A stretch of 62,446 nucleotides of DNA, filler included, from Globobulimina sp. (taxonomy: Eukaryota): assembly GCA_003354225.1 (NCBI GenBank). It is 29 parts of 29 records of this genome, joined end to end, with 100 filler letters (N's around TTAATTAATTAA, not from the genome) between each part and the next. Parts side by side here need not be neighbours in the genome. Positions count along the whole stretch, not along the records: positions 53,925 to 55,980 come from PIVH01009391.1; 28 more parts are not named here. One strand, written 5' to 3'. This document shows positions 2,334-62,446 of this stretch, in pieces. The position numbers and the translations under genes are program-made. Each line of letters begins with the position of its first letter. The first letter of the stretch is position 1. A model generated the notes under the pieces. The model searched no databases and had not been told where the DNA came from. It saw only the letters and a program-made list of their open reading frames with translations.

Positions 2334-3476
2334 CTAATTTGAAATTAATTTTAGATATGTTTCTTCCTGGCTTTTCCAATTGAATTTATCAACAAACCGG
2401 TTTGCATTTTTTACCAGTGACGCCCTTAAATCCGGATTTTCATATAATTCAACAATACAGTTTGCCAGATCATCAACATTCCCGGGATCAAAATATTTTA
2501 CCATATCATCATCAAAATAGTGCTGAATGATTTTTAATCGTGGAGCAATTACAGGAGTCTGCAGATACACATATTCCATCAATTTAACAGGCATCATGAA
2601 TTTATCTGTGGCCATATTCTTTTTATTGGGTACGACTCCAATATCATTCTCACTTACGATTTCCGGAATTTTTTCAACAGGGAAAAAAGATTTACTAAAA
2701 TATATATTTTTTTCCAATCCGAGCTCCCTGCTCAATGCTATGGAATCCTCTAAAAAATCACCCTCCCCATATATAGATAGAAACACAGGGATTTGATTTT
2801 TGATTTTTCCTATAGCTCTTATTAAAATATCTATTCCCTGTCTCTCTGTAATTGTACCATGGTATACCAGTTTGAACCTATTGTTTTTTCTAATTTTCTG
2901 AACGGGCTTAAAAATCTCCTCATTTGCCACATTCATGAAAACGGTAATTTTTTCTTCAGGAATTCCATATGTGATCAATGTTTCTTTCTGAAAATGATCG
3001 GCACAGAAAACCATGTCAGCAAAAGCAGCAGAAAATATCTGCTCAAATCTTAATATTTTGATCAGCCAGTGTTTTTCAGGAACAGAAAATTTTGTCTGAT
3101 ACAGGCATGTCATCAGATCATGCACATCAAGAATGATCCGTGCTCCCAACAATTTTGGAATAACTGCCGCAAAAACAATAAAGTTTGGCATATTATGGAC
3201 ATGAATGATATTGTATTTTTTTTTAAATTGAAGTGACAACAGCTTTACAAAAGCTTTGATGAAAAAAGTAAAATAGCTAAAAAAATATTTTAATGTAGAC
3301 TCTCCCTGATATTTTTCTGATATATAGTAAATATCTCCCTTTTTTAAAATATCTCGATTTTTTTCATTTAAAGCGATTACATCTGTTTCAATATCATTAC
3401 ACCCAAGGGACTTCACATATGCCTTAATTCTTGCATCAGAATAATAATTTGCATATGCTATCATGCATACTTTCAT
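2334..3476 (-). CDS. Bacterial glycosyltransferase family 4
   Basis: DARI, HVHNMP, LDVHD, YHGTITERQGID and PVKLMEY motifs; no introns; operon-like with the upstream GT. Confidence 0.93.
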   Translation of the reverse strand: MKVCMIAYANYYSDARIKAYVKSLGCNDIETDVIALNEKNRDILKKGDIYYISEKYQGESTLKYFFSYFTFFIKAFVKLLSLQFKKKYNIIHVHNMPNFIVFAAVIPKLLGARIILDVHDLMTCLYQTKFSVPEKHWLIKILRFEQIFSAAFADMVFCADHFQKETLITYGIPEEKITVFMNVANEEIFKPVQKIRKNNRFKLVYHGTITERQGIDILIRAIGKIKNQIPVFLSIYGEGDFLEDSIALSRELGLEKNIYFSKSFFPVEKIPEIVSENDIGVVPNKKNMATDKFMMPVKLMEYVYLQTPVIAPRLKIIQHYFDDDMVKYFDPGNVDDLANCIVELYENPDLRASLVKNANRFVDKFNWKSQEETYLKLISN

Positions 3477-3574
3477 AATAGTATTGATTTAGTTCACAAT
3501 TAAAATATTCGGGATTTCAGGCAGGAGAAAGTAATTTCTGTTAGAAAAATAACATTGAGTCACAGCTCTTCAAT

Positions 3575-4216
3575 TCACTTTTTTCTCCATTTAATTATAA
3601 CTTTATCATAAATAGTTACAAGCCTTTCTGCGATTTTTTCAAGGCTCAAATGGCTGATTCTATCCCTACCATCTGGTCTTTCCTTTGCTTGCAAGACATA
3701 AAAAAGTTTTTCTGCTATATCGTTTTCATCGTATGCACATATATAACAATTTCGTGTATCTTTAATTATTTTTCGCACATCCCCGACATCAACACTTACA
3801 ATCGGAAGATTTGATGCCATTGCCTCCTTAACAACATTCGGTGAACCCTCAAAGTATGAAGTCATTATTAATACATCTGCCGCATTCATCGCTAAAGCGA
3901 GGTCTGACTGGGGGCTATTGTGAAAAACCCATAGTCTTGAGTTATCAAGTTTGTTTTTCAGTCTTTCTACTCCGGCCTGGGCCAGGCTAACATTTTTTAC
4001 AAATAAGTCTGGATTCCCAACAAAAAGCACAAGTTTTTCGTCCGGACTGAAACCATTTTTTTGCCGAATATCCTTTGAATCTTTTGGGCAAAACAAATTA
4101 AAATCAACACCATTAGGAACAACACTAACATTATTATCAAAAAAAATTTGATTGGCCATGTGTTCGATTTTTACAATAATATGATCAGTCCAGGGAACAA
4201 GTGCCTGTGTAACGAA
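3575..4216 (-). CDS. Bacterial glycosyltransferase family 4, 5'-truncated
   Basis: VPNGVD, FEGSPNVVKEAMA (EX7E) and SVDVGDV motifs. Confidence 0.92.
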   Translation of the reverse strand, partial: FVTQALVPWTDHIIVKIEHMANQIFFDNNVSVVPNGVDFNLFCPKDSKDIRQKNGFSPDEKLVLFVGNPDLFVKNVSLAQAGVERLKNKLDNSRLWVFHNSPQSDLALAMNAADVLIMTSYFEGSPNVVKEAMASNLPIVSVDVGDVRKIIKDTRNCYICAYDENDIAEKLFYVLQAKERPDGRDRISHLSLEKIAERLVTIYDKVIIKWRKK

Positions 4217-18055: not shown

Positions 18056-18135
18056 GATATAGAGTTTGCTAGTTCAACTTTTCAACTTAAAAACTTTTCA
18101 ATATAGTCAGCAGTGCAGAAAAAAAATAAAACAGC

Positions 18136-19321
18136 ATGACAACCCTAATGGACACAGTAGCCACCATTGTGCATAATGAAACTATACAATATTTGCAACA
18201 AGAAAATGTCATACTGAATGATGAACAAATCAAATTTATCAATGAAATCAGCTTAACCTTAAAAGATTTATGTAATATGAATATAGAATCAGATTTGGGC
18301 CATTTTGCTGAATTTTGTCAACAATTAAACTTATCAATTGGCTCAAAAATAAAACTAAAATCAGCTATAATTAAGTTACAAGAACAGAAGCAACAAAAAC
18401 TAATATCATCACAGAACACCTCTAAATTGGATGTATTAATATCAATGGGCTTTGACCAACAAAAGGCACAAATAGCATTAACTATGAATGACAATGACAT
18501 TACCAAAGCTGCACAATTATTGACCGCACCGCAATTGCAACCGCTCTGTAACAAAGATGAAAAAAAGGATATTGAAATGGATGAAGCTAAGGTGGAAGAT
18601 CCGAATTTGCAGACTTTGATGGCAATGGGGTTCAATAAACAGAATTCAATGATTGCATTGGAACTTAATCGAAACGACATTAGTAAAGCTATAGAAACGT
18701 TAACCAGTGGCAGTATATCTACATTTGTATCCGAACAAATCACATCAAACACTGAATGTAAGTATGTGGAGAAAATGACTGTTGCATTGATTGGGGATTC
18801 AGGTGTTGGCAAATCATGCATTTTAACGAGATTTATGGATGATAGGTTTGATGAAATAGCAGCAGAAACACTTGGTGTTGACCATAGAGAGAAGGCAATG
18901 AATATAATAGATACAAATATTAAATTGAGAGTGCTGGATACTGCGGGTCAAGAAAGATTTGCTTCCATTGCGAGTTGGTATTATCGGGTATCGCATGCTT
19001 TCATTGTTGTGTATGATATAACGGATAAACAAAGTTTTTTACATTTGGACGTTTGGATGAAGAGATTAAATAAGAAAGCATGTGATTTAGCAAAACGCTT
19101 TGTTGTTGGCACAAAAATTGATTTACAAAACCAACAAGTGATCTCATTTGAATCAGCGAAGCAATATACAGAGTCAAAGAATTTCAGATATTGCGAAGTG
19201 AGTGCTAAATCAGGAAGGAATATTAATCAGTTATTCACGACTGTTGTGCTGTATGTGTTGCGAGATAATGTTGTTAGTAAATTCAAACAGAATAATAAAT
19301 CAAAGGATGTAATACATTTAA
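18136..19321 (+). CDS. Rab-family GTPase with N-terminal SAM-like and two UBA domains, 3'-truncated
   Basis: GDSGVGKS, TLGVD, DTAGQERF, GTKID, SAK. Two UBA motifs: LISMGF..ALTMNDNDI..A and LMAMGF..ALELNRNDI..A. Confidence 0.88.
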
Positions 19322-38732: not shown

Positions 38733-39158
38733 NNNNNNNNNNNNNNNNNNNNNNNNNNNNNNNNNNNNNNNNNNNNTTAATTAATTAANNNNNNNNNNNN
38801 NNNNNNNNNNNNNNNNNNNNNNNNNNNNNNNNTATTGATCTTGCTGTAGCCATAGCTGGTTTGAAGCATCTATAAGCTTCTTTTTTTGTGGCATCTCGCA
38901 ATCGAACTCTATGTTGGGTGGTTAAGTCTAATTTATGTTTACTTAACGTAATTCCCAAATATTTACTTTCGTTTTCTTCTTTGATATATATAGTAGTAGA
39001 GAAGGGGACACTTGACACCTTTTTTATATGTAAACAAATTTTTCAATTTTTTAATTTTTAAAATATATTTTGCAATTTTTAATTTTAAATATTTTCTATT
39101 CAGAAAAATATAAATACCATAATTTTTCGTTTTCTTGGTCATTGTTCATATTATCATC

Positions 39159-40142
39159 ATGTTAACAAAAACGAAAAAAGAATTGCTCGCTAAATTATTT
39201 TACAATTCAAAAACGGGTTTCACTTCACCCCATAAATTATGGTTACAAGCCCAAAAAGAAAATTCTGGTATAACCCAACAAGATGTAAAACTTTATTTAT
39301 CAACGCAACCTGCTTATTCAAGACATAAACAAGTACCAAAACCGAGAACTTCTATTTGGAATCGATGGATCCTAGCTTCGAATCCTGGACAAGTTGTCGC
39401 GATAGATGGATGGTTTCTAGGCACTGGTACAAAATCTCAATTTTCTCACGCTCTTGTCGCGGTTGACACTTTTACCAAACTAGCTGCCGTACAACCTATC
39501 AGAAATATGACGGCGGAAAATACAGCAAAAGCTATGGAGAAAATTATAAAAAATTTCAAATTTAGAATAATTTCGGTTTTCTGCGATCGCGGAAAAGAAT
39601 TCGTCGGAAAACCATTCCGCGATATGTTAAATCGTTATAACGTGCGCCAAATTTTCACATCTGGTAATAACCCATCAAAAACCGCTTTGGCCGAATCTCT
39701 GATCCGATCACTCCGAATTATATTGGGGAGAATTGTGACCGGCGGTGGATCGGGGTGGAATGCAGTTAAACAAGCACTATACATTTACAACAATTCACCA
39801 CACAGATCAATAGGAAATCGTGTCCCAAACAATGTTAGAATGGAGGACTCAGGGAAAATTTTAAAATATATTACCGACGAAAGAGAAAAAGAGATGGATA
39901 AGCCAAGTGTATTGGCTCCACCTAAATTTCAAAAAGATGATGTGGTTCGGGTTTTGGAATTAAATAAGAAAGGAGCCTTTGACAAAATCAATTTACCTAG
40001 ATGGAGCAAGGAGCTGTACCGAGTATATAAAGTGAAATACACAGTGCCTAGACCTAGTTATATTTTGTCTAATCCGTCGAGTGGAGCTGTTTTGCCAGGA
40101 AGTTTTCCTGAAAAATCACTTCAATTACGTCATAATGTATGA
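39159..40142 (+). CDS. Retroviral-like DDE integrase (Polinton pINT type)
   Basis: YNSKTGF N-terminus; D (VAID), D (CDRGKEF), E (AESLIRS); YNNSPHRSIG; KFQKDDVVRV..RWSKELYRV..GSFPEKSLQ. Confidence 0.9.
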   Translation: MLTKTKKELLAKLFYNSKTGFTSPHKLWLQAQKENSGITQQDVKLYLSTQPAYSRHKQVPKPRTSIWNRWILASNPGQVVAIDGWFLGTGTKSQFSHALVAVDTFTKLAAVQPIRNMTAENTAKAMEKIIKNFKFRIISVFCDRGKEFVGKPFRDMLNRYNVRQIFTSGNNPSKTALAESLIRSLRIILGRIVTGGGSGWNAVKQALYIYNNSPHRSIGNRVPNNVRMEDSGKILKYITDEREKEMDKPSVLAPPKFQKDDVVRVLELNKKGAFDKINLPRWSKELYRVYKVKYTVPRPSYILSNPSSGAVLPGSFPEKSLQLRHNV

Positions 40143-40888: not shown

Positions 40889-41168
40889 NNNNNNNNNNNN
40901 NNNNNNNNNNNNNNNNNNNNNNNNNNNNNNNNTTAATTAATTAANNNNNNNNNNNNNNNNNNNNNNNNNNNNNNNNNNNNNNNNNNNNTTTAGTGATGAA
41001 ACGATGTTTAAAATCAGCATTGATCAACAGTTCACATTAGATGATGGTCGCCCGATGCAAGCGTTTTTGTGTCAAAAATTACAGTTTAACTAAATTTTGA
41101 TCATACACAGTATATCACGAATATGTGTATTTTGCACTGAATATATTATATATGTACATTCATAAAAG

Positions 41169-42650
41169 TCAGTAATCATCAGAATAATCATCCTCATCAT
41201 CCTCATCATCCTCATCATCATCATCCTCATCTTCTTCATCTTCCCCAATAACAACGTCTTGTTTATCTTGCAAGTCCGATACTAAATTCCTTACATTTCT
41301 ATCAGCCTCATAAAAGTCATCAATATCCATCCCTTCCTGTGTGTAATGATGAAAATAATTTCTCATTCGAAACGCTTTCGAAAATGATGCACATATCCTT
41401 TGAAATACAGTTTTTACTGCAGTTTGATTGATAATTGTTGTGGACATTACTGGTGTAAACTTTTTATAACATTCAAATCCATCCTTGACAAAAGTTGACT
41501 GCATTGGATTGGGTATCCACGCTACAAAATCATCACTCAATTTATCATATAAACTCACACAATATTTATCCATACTATTTATTGCCTCTTTATCATTGCC
41601 TCTATAAAATATGCTGCAACTCATCATTTTGCCAGCTTCATTATGCACATTGGACAAATCCTTCGTGACAGTTTCATTTATTATTTTACTAATATGCCCA
41701 TTAAATATATACTCTTTCTTTGAAAAAAACGGTGAATGTGATAACGTCAGAAAATGTAATCTCGGAAAACAACATGATTCAATTTCCATTTTCTTCAAAT
41801 TTGAGCTCACATTTGGCTCACAAACAAAGCGCAAAGGAGATGTAATTCCACTTAATGCCAACGATAACGCCCAATTTATATCAGCAAAAGTAGCATTTGT
41901 TACATTCAAATCACTTTGAACCACTTTTAATAACTGACCATTGGCAATAACCATGCTTAAATCTGCAAAATCAATCAACTCATTTATGGCTAATATCGAA
42001 TTGTATATTTCTATATTGTTGTTATGATGGTTGTGCATTTTTGCTCCTCTTTGATAATATGAATAATATGAAAAGCCTCCTGTCAAAGACGGGAAAATGG
42101 TATGGGTCAATCTAGTTTTTTTGGGATAAGCATCCGTCAATTTTGTTAATAAAAGTGCAGCAAAACCAGAGCTGAATCCGCCACCCGTTGAATGTAACAT
42201 ATTTATGCCTTGATAATAATTAGAAACACTTTCAATTTGTTTCCTTATTTTATCGCAAACATAATCGATCATATCCTCACCATGCTTGTAATAACCTGTT
42301 GGGAATAGGATGGATGGCTCACTGTATTCGCCACAAAGCAGTGAATCGTTTGCATTCAACAATGATCCCAATGGTGATGCGCTTATTTTATTTATTGAGC
42401 TTTTGTCGATATCAATGAATATTGCTCTTGGGATATATTGATTGGTTATATTGTTATATTTGAAATATGTATTGATTTTATTTAATAATAACTCATCATT
42501 TCGATGCTTCCGGTTGCCAGTAAATTTGCCATTTTTGTCAATTTTATGTTCATTCATTATTGTTGAATAATAGGAATTTCCTCCAAATGTACCGCAACGT
42601 CCAAGACATAATGTTAATATTTCGTTTCCTGATGAGACAGTATCTGTCAT
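41169..42650 (-). CDS. Highly divergent beta-tubulin (retarian beta2-type)
   Basis: EILTLCLGRCG, PRAIFID, GITSPLRF, FPRLHF, FVAWIPN, TQEGMD, DRNVRNLVSDLQDKQD and an acidic tail. Confidence 0.88.
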   Translation of the reverse strand: MTDTVSSGNEILTLCLGRCGTFGGNSYYSTIMNEHKIDKNGKFTGNRKHRNDELLLNKINTYFKYNNITNQYIPRAIFIDIDKSSINKISASPLGSLLNANDSLLCGEYSEPSILFPTGYYKHGEDMIDYVCDKIRKQIESVSNYYQGINMLHSTGGGFSSGFAALLLTKLTDAYPKKTRLTHTIFPSLTGGFSYYSYYQRGAKMHNHHNNNIEIYNSILAINELIDFADLSMVIANGQLLKVVQSDLNVTNATFADINWALSLALSGITSPLRFVCEPNVSSNLKKMEIESCCFPRLHFLTLSHSPFFSKKEYIFNGHISKIINETVTKDLSNVHNEAGKMMSCSIFYRGNDKEAINSMDKYCVSLYDKLSDDFVAWIPNPMQSTFVKDGFECYKKFTPVMSTTIINQTAVKTVFQRICASFSKAFRMRNYFHHYTQEGMDIDDFYEADRNVRNLVSDLQDKQDVVIGEDEEDEDDDDEDDEDDEDDYSDDY

Positions 42651-42799
42651 TTGTGTTTTAACTGAACGATAGTTCGGATACTCGGATTTCGACTTTTGCA
42701 CGAAATAGGAGTGATATATTATTGATAAAAACTTAATTCAAAAAACAATTTACAAACTGTACACAGACGTGGTATAATTATACAAACTGTATCCCTACA

Positions 42800-45974: not shown

Positions 45975-47356
45975 TTATTTTTTCAAATTTCTTTTTTGAA
46001 AATGTGTTCCTCCGACAAAGCCACCCGCCAATGATTTATCCACGTTCTGCTTGAAGACATTTATATTATTTCTAAATTCTTGCGCAGCGAATTCATTTAA
46101 AGGGTCTGCAGCATTTGGTTCCTAAATCACATACAAAATAATATACAGTCTATAAAAAGTTAAAAAATAACAGACCAAAAATAACAACATTAAACCATGG
46201 ATAATTTGTTGCAGAGTTGAAATTGGTCTCCAATCGGCACCCAATATATTTAGCGAAATATTTCCTTGTAAATCAATATTTGGATGGTATATTTTTTCAA
46301 CACAGGTTACTTTTGGTGGTTTATACGGATAAAGATCTGGAATTACAAAGTTAAATGAATAGGTTGCACCGCGCCAATAGCCGCTCTCCAAAGTTATTGC
46401 AACTTGGAATTGTTGTAAATTCTCTTTATTTGCAATATTTAATCGCACATTGGGTGGCAATTCTAACTCATCCAAATCTAACTGCACTCGAACTAAACCA
46501 GGTTTAGGTGCTTTTTTTTTATTTTTCAATCCCTTTTTTTTGCCTCTTCTCCCTCGACCGATTTTGTATAATGATGTAATTGCTGCAGGGTTTGATTTCA
46601 TTGGTGATGCAGGAAAAACAAATTCAGCATCCGCTAAATCCATCATATCGTCCGCTAAATCCTCCACTTGATCGATGTTTAGCTCTTTATATTGTGCCTT
46701 CAATGCAGTTGCTGCCATTTTCATGGCACAAACCATATCAGCATTATCTTTGAGTGTTTGTTGCGCAAATCTGGTGTGATCAATATTCATTTGCTGTCGA
46801 TGCATATCACTTCTTTGCTTTTCATATTGTTTTTTTTGTTTTAATAATCTGAGTGCTTTTTGTTTATATGATTGCTTTGCTACACCTTTGCTTTTTTGCA
46901 TCCTTTTCTTTAATGCTACGATTTGCTTTTCCAATCTAATAATTTTGTTTTCTTTTTCTTCTTTTTTTTCTTCTTCATTTTCTGGTTCATTTTCTGGTTT
47001 CATATCAACTTTTTGCTTTACAACAATCATTGAGCTCCATGGAGTGACAAACTTATACTTCAATGCCAATGCTAATGGTGTGGATTCATGCTCTTTTTGT
47101 TCGTCCTCATCCAATTCAATCATATCATTATAAATTAGTTTCTGTTTGGCAAATTGTTGAAGTTTTAAGTATGCCCAGATTCGTTCTGCCTCATTTATAT
47201 CGTTGATCACATAGTTAATCTTGAATTTTTTTGTAATATTTATTGGTTCTGTTATTAATTTATCATTTTCTGTCCTTTGCGTCCCAGTGATTGCAGATAC
47301 TGTCACTGCTAAAGTGCAGTCCTTATTATTTTCAATTTTTCCACAAATAATAATAT
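45975..47356 (-). CDS. Fusion of ITIH/VIT-vWA-type C-terminus, Snf7 (CHMP5/Vps60-like) and Ubc12-like E2 (Cys-to-Ser); intron 46122-46175; 5'-truncated
   Basis: ERIWAYL..LALKYKFVTPWSSMIV; KQKALRLLKQKKQYE..NIDQVEDLADDMMD; YPYKPPKV..HPNIDLQGNISLNIL..DW, then EPNAADPLN after splicing. Confidence 0.82.
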
Positions 47357-53924: not shown

Positions 53925-55980
53925 GATGAATGACGGGTTGAAGCGGCCGCGCCGCCCATCGTCGCCTTGTCTGTTGTAATAATCGCGCGAACTGTCTCGG
54001 ATATACTTCAAATGCTCCAGCGTACAGATCTTGATCACATGCGAGCGCTGCTGCAATTGCTGTATCTGTTGCCCGTCTTTGCCAATCAAGGCCTTGCGCA
54101 CTTTGGCGGGGATCAACTCGAAATCCTGCTGCATCTCCAAAATGTTGCGCGCCTCCTCCGCCGCGTTGGCGTCAGTCGCCAATATCAGACATTCGCTCGT
54201 CTCCTCCTTCACATTCCGCACATTTATGTGGCGCACCTGAGCAACATTCGCAATCTGCATTGGTTTGGAGAATGAAATAGGTTTTAACTTGTTTGATTTG
54301 CTTGGCTCGCTGGATATTTTCGCCCTTGGTACCGATGACATATTTGGTCAAAGAGATGTTGAATTCGAAGCGAATGCAGACACATTTGCTCAGCTCGTCG
54401 TATTCGCGCTGCTTGGTCTTTTCCTCCAACTTGACCTGTTCTTCCTTCTTCTTGTACAGCTCTCGCAAATTCCACACGAATTTAATCAGCATTTTGGCGT
54501 CGTAGACGCGCCGTTTGTTGCCAATTAAGACCAACTTCTCTTCGGAGGGCGAGTAATTCAAATGGATTAACTGCGTTTGCTGCGCGATGCGCTTTAATTG
54601 AGACATGCTGGTCTCTGCGCGCTGCATCTCGTCGTTTACGACACGTAAATCGCGGCCAAACATTAAGTGCATGCTATTGTGCTGTTGACTGGATAGATCT
54701 GCGCCGGATTTGAACTCTGAGATTCGGTCTCGAGAAATGGTCAAATATTCCCGGATAATATGCTCGTCCTCAAACGGCTCCCTTTTTTAGTTTTTTTTGT
54801 GGTTATTCTCGCAAATTCGCACTCAAACACGCTTTGTCATATTTTGTTGGCAGTTTCGAGACAGAATATTCACACTTAACTGGTCGTTGTAGGGCCGTAA
54901 CATATTATGTTGCAATACTTCGTGATGATTATCCCAGCCTTCATACGTGATTAAATAAAGCTAAATATTGACAGAAACTTGCGGAAAATTCTAACATTTT
55001 GCGTAAATACTTAACATTGTCTCGCACGGTTTTGATGGTACAATCCCACCATCCATAAGGCTCAGATTCCTCTGCTTTGGCTTGACACTGCAAACAACGC
55101 AATAAATATTGTGACTCATCAGATAGAGAAAGCAATTAACTTCGACATGGTCGCCTTGCTTCGGTTTCCAGTTAGCTTCCAATGGGAGAGCCAGAGGGCG
55201 GACATAATTGACAGGGACAGACTGGTCCGGCTTCCATGGATAGGAAACCTTCAACTTTTCCTCTTTCTCGTCATAATCGAACACATAGCCTTCATAATAC
55301 GCAAAAGTTTCGTCGCATTTCACCTCATATCGCGTTCCAAAAAACATTTTGCTGTTCACGCCCAAGGAGGAAAAGGGCGGCTTTTTCTTGGATGTGGTGA
55401 GAGAGGCCAATGATTGTTGCGATGCGATGTCAGTGTCTTCTTTGTTGTCGATGGAGGCTTTGTTGTCATTGGCCGGTGTTTTGTTGACTGTTTCTGGTTT
55501 GATAGCGCCTTCCAATGTTTTTGGAGCAGGTTTGGTGTCGACGGGGGATAAATTGTTGCTTTCTTGGTTGGGATTTGCATTTTGAGTTTGTGCATTTATC
55601 GACGATGATATTGCGTTGGATGTAGCGGACTGTGTGGATTGCGATGCTTTGTTGTTGGCGTTGAGAGATTGCGATTGTGTCTGTAATGAGGACTGGTTTT
55701 GTGTGGGAGCTTGGGTTTGGGGCTGTGTTTGTTGATTGATTTGGGCGATGTTTATTTGTGTGTTTTGGGGTTGAGGGGGCTGTAGAGGTTGATGGGAGGA
55801 GGTTTGTTGTGGCTGCGGTGGCTGTGGTTGATATCTGGGCGCTGCAGATGGGTTGTTGTTGTTTGCGTTGCTGTATGGTTGGTGATATGGAGGTTGTGGT
55901 TGGACATAGCCGGACTGCTGGTTTTGGCTTTGTTGTGGTGGCTGCTGTGGTTGTTGATGATGTCGACGGTAATTGTTTTG
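53925..55980 (-). CDS. FMR1/FXR-like RNA-binding protein (tandem Agenet/Tudor, KH0, KH1, KH2), multi-exon, truncated at both ends
   Basis: YEVK..AYYEGYV..WKPDQSVP..VRP; GDHVE-CQAKAEESEPYGWW; VIGTKGENIQRAK; EARNILE..LIGKDGQQIQ. Introns at 55088-55140 and about 54237-54288. Confidence 0.8.
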
Positions 55981-60391: not shown

Positions 60392-61448
60392 TCTAAATAC
60401 CTTATAACGCGCACAATCATATCATTTAAGTATTTGCAGTTGATAATATCCGCCACTTTGCACCGTAATTTCTCATCCGTTGCTAGGGTTTTTTGAAGTG
60501 TCTCAATCAATATTTTAGGTATACCTTCAAACGGGATCCCCCGCCCTCGGTTCATATGTTTTAGATGCGGCGCATTGGCAATGTTTAAGTTATTGACAAA
60601 ACGACGATATTCGTCTGCAGATTTCATCATATTTTCTCTGCGGATACCCGACTGAAAGCGGTGTAGTATGTAAGCGAGTCTACCAATGGAGAATACGTCA
60701 GATTTTATAGTCATTATATTCGAGATCATGATCTCCGGCGATAAGCAGGTAAATGGTGGGTAATATGGCAATTCCCGCTCGTTTGTAAAGTCCCATTCCA
60801 AGCGCGATTCGTCGTTTTCGGTGGCTACGTGCTCCGCGAATTGGAAACCAAACTAGACACAACACGCAATATCGCAATGCATTGCAGGCAGAGGTATTAT
60901 ATTTGGAAATGGAACTGAACTAATTTCCAGTCGCCAGTTTGTGTGATGTACACATTGGAGGGGTCAATAAATCCATGCGCCATATGAGCGTCATTGTGCA
61001 TAAACAAAGCAGCGTCGCATAATTGCGCTAAGCCAGAGCGTATTTGCAAAGCCCCGAATTTGAAATTACTTATTTTCTGTGGTAAACTGAATGTCGTTTC
61101 TGTAGTTTGTGTGGTGTCGCCGAGGATGTTGGACAAGGAACACATGACTCGTTCAGTCACGAAAGCCAATTCGCCACGGAATTCTTTGATGGGTTTGATA
61201 ACACGCAAACAATTGGGATGTTTGAATTTATATCCTCGTTCCACTTCTTTTTTCAACAGATTTATATATCGATCACCATCTTTACGCAATGTTTTCGGAA
61301 GTTCTTTTTTCGAGAATGTGAATATTGTCACTTCTTCTTTGCTTTTTAAATCCGTGGCGGTGTACAATTTCCAACAAAGTCCCAATCCGCCACTGCCACA
61401 TTGATTATCCAAATTGACATCATACTCTTTTTTAAGTTGGTTCCCCAT
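60392..61448 (-). CDS. SCY1-like (SCYL2-type) pseudokinase, 3'-truncated; intron 60853-60920
   Basis: MGNQ start, GLCWKLY, KHPNCL, AFVTERV, AHGFIDPSNVYI..GDWKL-FGF, SPE, SDVFSIG. Confidence 0.88.
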
Positions 61449-61491
61449 TGTATAACACTTGAAAGTTTTCTGAATCAAACATAAATAAACC

Positions 61492-62446
61492 ATGTCACGA
61501 TCAGAAGAAAGGCAACATTTACGCTCAGAAGATTTCACATCTCTCCGCAATAAAAGTTCCTCAAATTCACGATCTCGTTCACGCTCCCGATCCCGCGATA
61601 GAACCAACAAAGAAAACCTAAAAAAATCACCATCCAAGTCACCTCAACCGCCATTAAACACCACCCCAACCACACCCATCCCCACCACCACCACATCCAC
61701 CGCACAACAACCGGTATAAATAAATAAAATCTATCATTCATTATCCTTGCACTCATACACAAAAACCGCAAACAGCAATCCATGGCAGCCATTGTGGACT
61801 CCCCATTGGCACAGCCCCCACCCACACACATCCAATACAACATCGACGAGACGACACTACGCAAATTCTGTCAACCTTACAACATGCAAGAATTGGTCCG
61901 AATGCTCTGCAACACCGCCTACGTAAACCGCGCCTTTTATTCCACCTTAGTCTCTGAGATGAAAAAGTCCTCCAAATGGTGCAAATTATTCGTACACGGT
62001 CTCCCATGGACCACCAGCCAGCAAACCCTGTACAATGTGTTCAGTCGCTTCGGCGAGATCGTTGAATGCGTGATTTTAAAAGACCGAAACGGGCAAAGCA
62101 AAGGCTATGGCTTTATAAATTACAGCGACGCGCAAGAAGCCATCAATGCGATCAACGCCGGTCCGCAACAAATCGACGGACGAATGGTCGGCTCTGACTT
62201 AGCGTGGAAGGGACGAAAAAACCGCAGCAATAACAATACAAACAACAGCAATGCCGCCAAAGCTATAAACAACAACATAATGGGCGGTCCATTGGCTATG
62301 CGTCGCTTGTTCGTATATTCCTTATTGTACTCCACAACGGACGAGACATTGTGTCGTGTGTTCAGTGAGCACGGCGCATTGGAGGAAGCGGTGATTATTA
62401 AAGACAAAAACAACGCCAATAAGAGCAAAGGATATGGCTTTGTTAT
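61492..62446 (+). CDS. RS-rich, two-RRM RNA-binding protein (UBA2/hnRNP-like), multi-exon, 3'-truncated
   Basis: SRSRSRSR N-terminus; KLFVHGLPW..SKGYGFI and RLFVYSL..SKGYGFV. The RRM frame is missing from the ORF track. Confidence 0.85.

Follow-up and report, generated by a model that had tools for sequence, protein, structure and literature searches.

Few human disease proteins have been studied as intensively as FMRP, which is usually regarded as an invention of animals and largely of neurons. The human proteins FMR1, FXR1 and FXR2, of which Drosophila dFMR1 is a further relative, contain two Tudor/Agenet domains followed by the KH domains KH0, KH1 and KH2. The same order is found in the family of the gene described here, which lies on the minus strand of one contig (PIVH01009391.1) from the Globobulimina sp. 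assembly GCA_003354225.1. This contig occupies positions 53925–55980 of the window, as we call the whole stretch of DNA analysed (62,446 bases). It is an internal piece of a single gene, with five exons and four introns, and is open at both ends. The gene adds a new member from outside animals to the FMRP/FXR family. With all core domains present and in the same order, it is filed in the wide FMRP/FXR family, and as the proteins of its clade have no match to the Pfam family FXMRP1_C_core and are placed outside the animal clade, it is filed outside the animal FMR1/FXR group.

Full-text literature searches, which did not cover subscription journals and supplements and some of which were too broad to carry much weight, returned no report of an FMRP/FXR homolog outside animals. 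Non-animal members are also not mentioned in passages from two articles (PMC3361156 and PMC9140010).

Domain order and fold of the structured core

When a profile of the window clade (16 sequences) is aligned with a profile of animal-type FMR1/FXR proteins (19 sequences) using hhalign, the result is a single collinear alignment of 377 columns, with a probability of 100 and an E-value of 9.5e-62. The aligned region starts at Tudor 1, takes in Tudor 2, the linker and the domains KH0, KH1 and KH2, and extends into the helix after KH2; the loop within KH2 is at the same place in both groups. A second profile, made from six homologs plus the window exons, was searched against the PDB and found 13 sequences at E ≤1, the top nine of which are FMR1, FXR1 or FXR2. 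The best scores are those of the tandem Tudor domains of FXR1 (PDB entry 3kuf, 3.9e-13 over 111 residues) and of the KH1-KH2 domains of FMR1 (PDB entry 2qnd, 9.3e-13); the next family, IGF2BP3, follows at 5.7e-4. With the homolog P0006 alone as query, the top seven of 12 PDB matches are FMR1/FXR.

P0006 shares 65% identity with the window protein; its structure, predicted with AlphaFold, has a predicted local distance difference test score (pLDDT) above 90 for most of residues 30–440. In a Foldseek search of the PDB with this model, the best 12 matches are all FMRP/FXR. The model superposes on the FXR1 Tudor domains (PDB entries 3kuf and 3o8v) with a template modelling (TM) score of 0.85 and a root-mean-square deviation of 1.9–2.2, on the crystal structures of the Tudor1-Tudor2-KH0 unit (PDB entries 4ova and 4qvz) with a TM score of 0.69–0.70 over 227–230 columns, and on the KH1-KH2 pair of 2qnd with a TM score of 0.70. 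A KH0 domain, lacking the GxxG motif, is located between Tudor 2 and KH1, as judged from the collinearity of the hhalign alignment and from the superposition of the P0006 model. The other proteins retrieved resemble parts of the core: the plant tandem-Agenet readers AGDP1/AGDP3 and ADCP1 share the tandem Agenet fold only (TM score 0.62–0.67) and IGF2BP/PCBP the KH pair only. None of them has a KH0 domain, and their E-values are 1e-5 to 1e-4, as opposed to 6e-14. In the ESM Atlas, the clusters nearest to the window family are FMR1/FXR clusters from chordates and arthropods.

An earlier note, made from the DNA sequence, had proposed an FMR1/FXR-like gene, and the profile search of the PDB, the hhalign alignment and the predicted fold of P0006 all bear this out. 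It had also considered that the best matches might turn out to be KH proteins outside the FXR group; by sequence as well as by fold, the top PDB matches are FMR1/FXR.

Despite the conserved architecture, the window protein is just 21–26% identical to FMR1/FXR proteins (26% over 345 residues to the vertebrate FMR1-type protein P0078, E-value 8e-26). Among animal sequences, 53 columns of the alignment are invariant or nearly so; 47 of these are on the contig, and at 27 of the 47 the window protein has the identical residue. The residues kept include W79, W80, Y96, R113 and N116, the glycines of both KH loops (G235 and G238 in KH1, G298 and G301 in KH2), and I297, K299, I304, Q305 and V313. Animal-invariant residues that are altered include H147, replaced by lysine, G231, also replaced by lysine, and G249, replaced by glutamine. 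Both KH1 and KH2 thus have intact GxxG loops, as in FMR1/FXR, and KH2, the core of which is conserved, keeps the isoleucine equivalent to I304.

The contig ends within the variable loop of KH2, and the rest of this domain can be followed in close relatives. There, a segment 'KLIIIGPKE.V..AK.LI' aligns to 'VPFVFVGTK..I.NA..LL' of the animal proteins, with the loop in between; in the P0006 model, a strand (residues 404–412) follows the gap, and is itself followed by a helix (residues 416–448). The splitting of KH2 by a loop at the same place and the long helix after KH2 are features that FMR1/FXR have in common with the close relatives of the window gene. A third KH domain after KH2 was considered for this segment and rejected, the hhalign alignment identifying it as the second half of KH2. 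Disordered tails rich in RGG, as in FMR1/FXR, are found in several relatives (P0001, P0003, P0004, P0005 and P0041 of Chlorarachnion), at a position that would fall beyond the window contig; an RGG box is not evident in P0198 of Nonionella stella.

There are also differences. Ahead of Tudor 1, the window gene encodes a long Q/P/N-rich extension; those animal-type proteins that were scanned begin at Tudor 1 (the Tudor_FRX1 matches start at residues 4–14 in P0078, P0080 and P0081). The Pfam families FXMRP1_C_core, FXR_C1 and FXMR_C2 have no match in the window-clade proteins scanned, and the tail of the window family has conserved motifs of its own, namely SARRQRKRE, DPEFPSLG, SWLEHDE and a carboxy-terminal VWKPKDKSQ. 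Taken over the entire structured core, the sequence profiles and the modelled fold identify the protein as a genuine FMRP/FXR homolog.

Gene model, splicing and strain variation

The four GT..AG introns were first read by eye from the sequence, and the exon ends were then set by script. The gene, entirely on the minus strand, is made up as follows, in the direction of transcription:

55348–55980, minus strand: exon 1, 5' part; Q/P/N-rich amino-terminal extension of 211 codons, with the frame open to the contig end and the start codon off the contig.
55141–55347, minus strand: exon 1, 3' part; Tudor/Agenet 1 and the first strand of Tudor/Agenet 2 (MFFGTRYEV...GDHVE), from Pfam, phmmer and the family profile.
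55088–55140, minus strand: intron 1; 53 nucleotides, GTTAAT..CAG, GC content 0.34; joint 55087->55141 in run X5 (CT..AC on the plus strand), with loose ends; homologs match the join.
55016–55087, minus strand: exon 2; first part of Tudor/Agenet 2 (CQAKAEESEPYGWW...), 96% identical to P0006.
54961–55015, minus strand: intron 2; 55 nucleotides, GTTAAG..TAG, GC content 0.29; joint 54960->55016 in X5, also bridged by a contig of run X7.
54881–54960, minus strand: exon 3; second part of Tudor/Agenet 2 (LYLITYEGWDNHHEVLQHNMLRPYND), ending in phase 2, 100% identical to P0006 across the exon.
54782–54880, minus strand: intron 3; 99 nucleotides, GTTAAG..AAG, GC content 0.34; in X5 and X7 a loose end at 54781 resumes at 54881, and the join NDQ|EPFED is that of the homologs.
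54289–54781, minus strand: exon 4; linker, KH0 and first half of KH1 with its GxxG motif (VIGTKGENI), from the hhalign register, the fold of P0006 (4ova/4qvz) and Pfam KH_1.
54237–54288, minus strand: intron 4; 52 nucleotides, GTTAAA..CAG; joint 54234->54287 in X5 ('cut +2'), with 52 nucleotides skipped and ends CT..AC.
53925–54236, minus strand: exon 5; second half of KH1, first part of KH2 with its GxxG motif (LIGKDGQQI) and the start of the KH2 variable loop, including GRRGR; open at the contig end.

Spliced by script, the window protein has 388 residues and no stop codons. Relative to the protein, the four introns fall after GDHVE, after VRDN, within the Q codon that follows RPYND, and after AKQIKQ. 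The joins over introns 1 to 3 are reproduced letter for letter by six environmental homologs (558–851 residues long and 46–66% identical to the largest exon). Starting exon 5 at 54236 gives AKQIKQ|VRHINV, which agrees with AKKIEGVKHINV of the homologs without an insertion. An acceptor of intron 4 located 18 nucleotides earlier, which would make the protein six residues longer than the homologs at this point, is ruled out by the X5 joint. On both strands of the contig, no promoter, no untranslated region and nothing else besides the gene and its antisense shadow frames was found.

The motifs quoted in the earlier note are all present in minus-strand frames and in the order claimed: WKPDQSVPVNYVRP, GDHVE followed by the exon 2 motif, NYSPSEEKLVLIG..AKMLI, VIGTKGENIQRAK, AEEARNILE, LIGKDGQQIQ and GRRGR. 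The last of these is located in the variable loop of KH2, into which the 3' boundary of the contig falls, and is not a carboxy-terminal RGG box. The note had placed the gene at 53925–55340. A gene is indeed located there, but it does not end at 55340, the frame remaining open for 211 more codons up to 55980. This additional open frame, upstream of the methionine at 55347, aligns with the amino-termini of P0001, P0004 and P0005, and a stretch just ahead of Tudor 1, 'QQSLAS..T.KKKP', is conserved between the amino-terminal extension and the homologs.

Searched one at a time, the exons give weak matches, so the identification rests on the profiles described above. Exon 1 matches Tudor_FRX1 in Pfam (E-value 0.0033) and, with phmmer against the PDB, has FXR1 (3kuf) as its best match, at an E-value of 0.012. 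Exon 4 alone has no meaningful match in the PDB. KH_1 matches are present on exons 4 and 5, that of exon 5 (E-value 5.3e-05) being the sole exon match to reach the gathering score.

All four donor sites read GTTAA (GTTAAT, GTTAAG, GTTAAG and GTTAAA) rather than starting the common GTAAGT. In the window, neither GTTAAGT (7 found, 6.9 expected) nor GTAAGT (13 found, 18.4 expected) is enriched, so the GTTAA donors of this gene cannot be matched to a genome-wide signal.

The sequence was found in several public sequencing runs. Run X1 matches it with 100% identity and roughly fivefold depth, and an X1 contig (54737–55512) reads through introns 1 to 3, as DNA would. In X5, recorded under a second organism code (B), 91 of the 115 aligned contigs are at least 99% identical and the sequence is spliced; in X7, under a third code (C), contigs 90–99% identical to the window contig are spliced too. 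Together, the spliced contigs of X5 and X7 support all four introns. None of the listed runs with the sequence is recorded as RNA, X5 and X7 being judged transcript-like from their spliced joints alone. The gene is transcribed and spliced.

The variation between these sequences follows the reading frame. When the window is compared with the contigs of X6 and X7, the insertions and deletions in the amino-terminal extension measure 3, 6 and 3 nucleotides, all three being multiples of three. Of the 29 substitution sites listed for the full length of the contig, 18 are at third codon positions (p=0.0014). Run X6, which has the same organism code as X1, covers just the part encoding the amino-terminal extension (55244–55921), with 90–95% identity and an in-frame deletion of six nucleotides. 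This sequence may be from a second allele, a paralog or another strain.

Relatives and origin of the gene

A profile search of 1.84 billion representative proteins gave 394 matches at E ≤1e-3, 153 at 1e-10 and 43 at 1e-30. By identity to the window protein, the best match of all, and the best relative with an organism name, is a protein of the foraminifer Nonionella stella (P0198), with 73.3% identity over 367 residues. In a Pfam scan of the 145 matches listed as P0007–P0151, the animal carboxy-terminal core, FXMRP1_C_core, was found in 11 at the thresholds applied, the best of which ranks about 65th (E-value 2e-22). Higher-ranking matches contain Agenet and KH_1 domains and at times a weak KH_9 or Tudor_FRX1 match. 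For P0198 itself, Pfam reports KH_1 only, which may explain how such proteins pass as generic KH proteins. Some relatives contain fused modules: a CCCH zinc finger in P0028, a RING finger after the Agenet region in P0043 and P0123, and ubiquitin in P0071.

A tree was calculated from 85 rows spanning Tudor 1 to KH2. It is a quick IQ-TREE run, is unrooted and has branch support from the Shimodaira-Hasegawa-like approximate likelihood ratio test (SH-aLRT) only; organism names are available for just a few rows. The window protein is located in a clade of six rows (SH-aLRT 99), together with P0198. All ten rows with FXMRP1_C_core fall inside a separate clade of 33 rows (SH-aLRT 97), which includes two named animals, Trichuris muris and Pomphorhynchus laevis. 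Outside this animal clade are 52 of the 85 full-core rows, in several deep clades. In this sequence tree, the window protein is outside the animal FMR1/FXR clade.

One of the other clades, of four rows, contains the chlorarachniophytes Chlorarachnion reptans (P0041) and Lotharella globosa (P0200). Like the window gene, these are rhizarian and have the full Tudor-Tudor-KH0-KH1-KH2 core, and they are unannotated transcriptome proteins. They are 25–26% identical to the window protein, and the foraminiferan and chlorarachniophyte clades are about 25% identical to each other. P0041 has a clear RGG box after KH2 and does not have the long amino-terminal extension. Further KH proteins resembling FMR1 outside animals are present in an ESM Atlas cluster that was automatically named 'Fmr1-b protein'. 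This cluster has 54 members, its Perkinsozoa label comes from four of the 54, and its score is 0.85, making it a lead only; it suggests that automatic annotation has already met non-animal FMR1-like proteins.

We consider it very probable that the contig is the middle of a nuclear, intron-bearing and transcribed FMRP/FXR-family gene of a foraminifer-like protist. The assembly itself has a lineage marker in the window, a divergent tubulin of 522 residues (41172–42737, minus strand, on the contig at 40989–43044). Its eight best database matches are all from Foraminifera in EukProt, the best two, Nonionella stella and Bolivina argentea, at 49–50% identity and Elphidium margaritaceum at 40%, as opposed to less than 30% to ordinary tubulins of other organisms. 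By its sequence it looks like a member of a foraminifer-specific tubulin subfamily, in agreement with the earlier note, which had described the genome as apparently rhizarian. An ESM Atlas query with this tubulin gave no lineage information.

Several observations weigh against this reading. In the window clade, KH_9 is not detected by Pfam, and neither is FXMRP1_C_core in the ten window-clade proteins scanned (P0001–P0007, P0198, P0180 and P0177). The fold was predicted for a homolog and not for the window protein itself. The GC content at third codon positions (GC3) of the core is 0.62, compared with 0.19–0.44 in long open reading frames of other contigs, and the relative synonymous codon usage (RSCU) is uncorrelated with that of the pooled open reading frames (r = -0.02). 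The same sequence is found, spliced and at least 99% identical, under organism code B (X5) and at 90–99% identity under code C (X7), and the Nonionella transcriptome may hold other organisms itself.

The composition of the contig bears on the possibility that it comes from a second protist in the sample (prey, a symbiont or a culture contaminant), in which case the gene would still be a non-animal FMRP-like gene, though not one of this genome. The window consists of 29 contigs of 2055–2058 bp each, ordered by size and joined by spacers of the form N44-TTAATTAATTAA-N44, so adjacency within it has no genomic meaning. The GC content of the gene's contig, 0.464, is the highest of the 29 (the other 28 range from 0.273 to 0.433), in agreement with the earlier note, which had put it above most neighbouring contigs. 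This composition, the deviating GC3 and codon usage, the presence of four introns in 1.2 kb of coding sequence compared with unbroken frames of 400–700 codons on many other contigs, and the occurrence of the sequence or a close variant in runs under three organism codes all fit a second protist. On the other hand, the best named relative, at 73% identity, is a foraminifer, from the same group as the relatives of the window tubulin, and the introns (GC content 0.29–0.35) match the bulk of the window in their richness in AT. The sole match in codon usage is the gene of an RRM protein on the last contig (GC3 0.59, RSCU r 0.54), which has a kinase-like gene next to it:

61782–62444, plus strand: RRM protein gene.
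60900–61643, minus strand: kinase-like gene.

The kinase-like gene has a GC3 of 0.40, with 2 AGR and 15 CGN arginine codons, so that a high and a lower GC3 are found on one contig. Across the window as a whole, both GC3 and the choice of arginine codons vary continuously. This suggests that the RRM and FMRP-like genes, both RNA-binding, belong to a class of GC3-rich genes in one genome. Because of the continuum and the AT-rich introns, the high GC3 fits an expression-linked codon bias within one genome, although it is not proof of it. On balance, we think an origin from a second protist improbable.

Equally hard to favour is an animal origin of the family followed by horizontal transfer into Rhizaria, which would make the gene uninformative about an ancient origin. 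The direction of descent cannot be read from an unrooted tree, and only a few of the non-animal members are named (Nonionella, Chlorarachnion, Lotharella and the Atlas cluster labelled Perkinsozoa). However, a single starred branch separates the animal rows from all others, and the 52 rows that are not of animal type are deeply divergent from each other, in several clades, while a recent transfer from within animals would nest such rows among the animal ones. The gene also has introns of its own and a lineage-specific amino-terminal extension.

That the contig is an animal contaminant, as the earlier note had allowed, is contradicted by the data and has a negligible probability: the family is best known from animals and the nearest ESM Atlas clusters are the chordate and arthropod ones, but identity to the vertebrate FMR1-type protein is just 26%, FXMRP1_C_core is in none of the ten window-clade proteins scanned, and starred branches part the window clade from the 33-row clade with all ten animal-core rows, Trichuris and Pomphorhynchus. 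Independent assembly of Agenet and KH domains in an identical order is just as implausible; both modules are widespread, and plant tandem-Agenet proteins and IGF2BP/PCBP KH pairs do appear in the fold search, with weaker scores, but convergence would have to account for 377 collinear columns that include the linkers, a KH0 without GxxG, a KH2 interrupted by a loop at an equivalent position and the helix that follows this domain, as well as for a first 12 fold matches that are all FMRP/FXR, including the three-domain Tudor1-Tudor2-KH0 unit.

Between the older origin of the family and the foreign contig that the earlier note had offered as alternatives, the former is favoured, by the placement outside the animal-core clade and by the relatives in Nonionella and the chlorarachniophytes; the latter is weakened, with the GC3 outlier and the occurrence of the sequence under other organism codes remaining.

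Judging from close relatives, the foraminifer-like gene would continue beyond the contig end with the second half of KH2, the long helix and a tail of low complexity that has conserved motifs and, in several of these relatives, an RGG box. By analogy with FMRP/FXR, KH1 and KH2 (and the RGG tail where present) would bind mRNA and ribosomes, the tandem Tudor/Agenet module may read methylated partners, and the disordered ends may drive granule formation. The protein would then be expected in cytoplasmic messenger ribonucleoprotein granules, repressing or tuning the translation of the mRNAs it binds, possibly with microtubule-based transport of these mRNAs, as proposed from the animal proteins. 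A more far-reaching scenario, which we put forward as a speculation with the odds against it, is that Rhizaria and animals inherited the full FMRP architecture (Tudor-Tudor-KH0-KH1-split KH2-disordered RGG tail) from the ancestor they share, which would date it close to the last eukaryotic common ancestor, with subsequent losses in yeasts and plants, where looked for, and that in foraminifera, as in neurons, mRNA granules might move on microtubules for local translation, here in the reticulopodial network. If this were true, a cultivable foraminifer would be a non-neuronal model for FMRP-type mRNA transport.

The presence of the whole structured core in Foraminifera, together with clades in chlorarachniophytes and many microbial eukaryotes, changes the animal-only picture of the family. 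The architecture would then be much older than animals and nervous systems, barring an ancient horizontal transfer, given that the tree is unrooted. Such very distant sequences help to tell residues under true constraint from others: I304 and the two GxxG loops, for example, have been retained, whereas G249 and H147 have changed. They also point to a blind spot in annotation, as standard pipelines would label the named foraminiferan protein as a generic KH protein.

Other contigs of the window

An Rfam search of the window found no RNA family. Some of the other contigs contain protein-coding features that are unrelated to the gene described above:

2337–3488, minus strand: group-1 glycosyltransferase, intronless open reading frame.
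3578–4216, minus strand: adjoining group-1 glycosyltransferase, intronless open reading frame on the same contig.
18130–19320, plus strand: single open reading frame, with UBA-like domains ahead of a Ras/Rab-type GTPase domain.
39123–40139, plus strand: open reading frame with an integrase core domain (rve, E-value 1e-12), followed by an overlapping one of 284 residues that has no Pfam match.
46125–47354, minus strand: one unbroken frame with a Snf7 domain (residues 130–242), then a ubiquitin-conjugating E2 domain (residues 293–392).

The two glycosyltransferases, on a contig with a GC content of 0.346, look bacterial in type; either the assembly could include a contig from a bacterium, or the two genes could have been acquired by transfer. 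The integrase frame is probably part of a mobile element. The Snf7-E2 frame encodes either a fusion protein or two genes that are read through in one frame.

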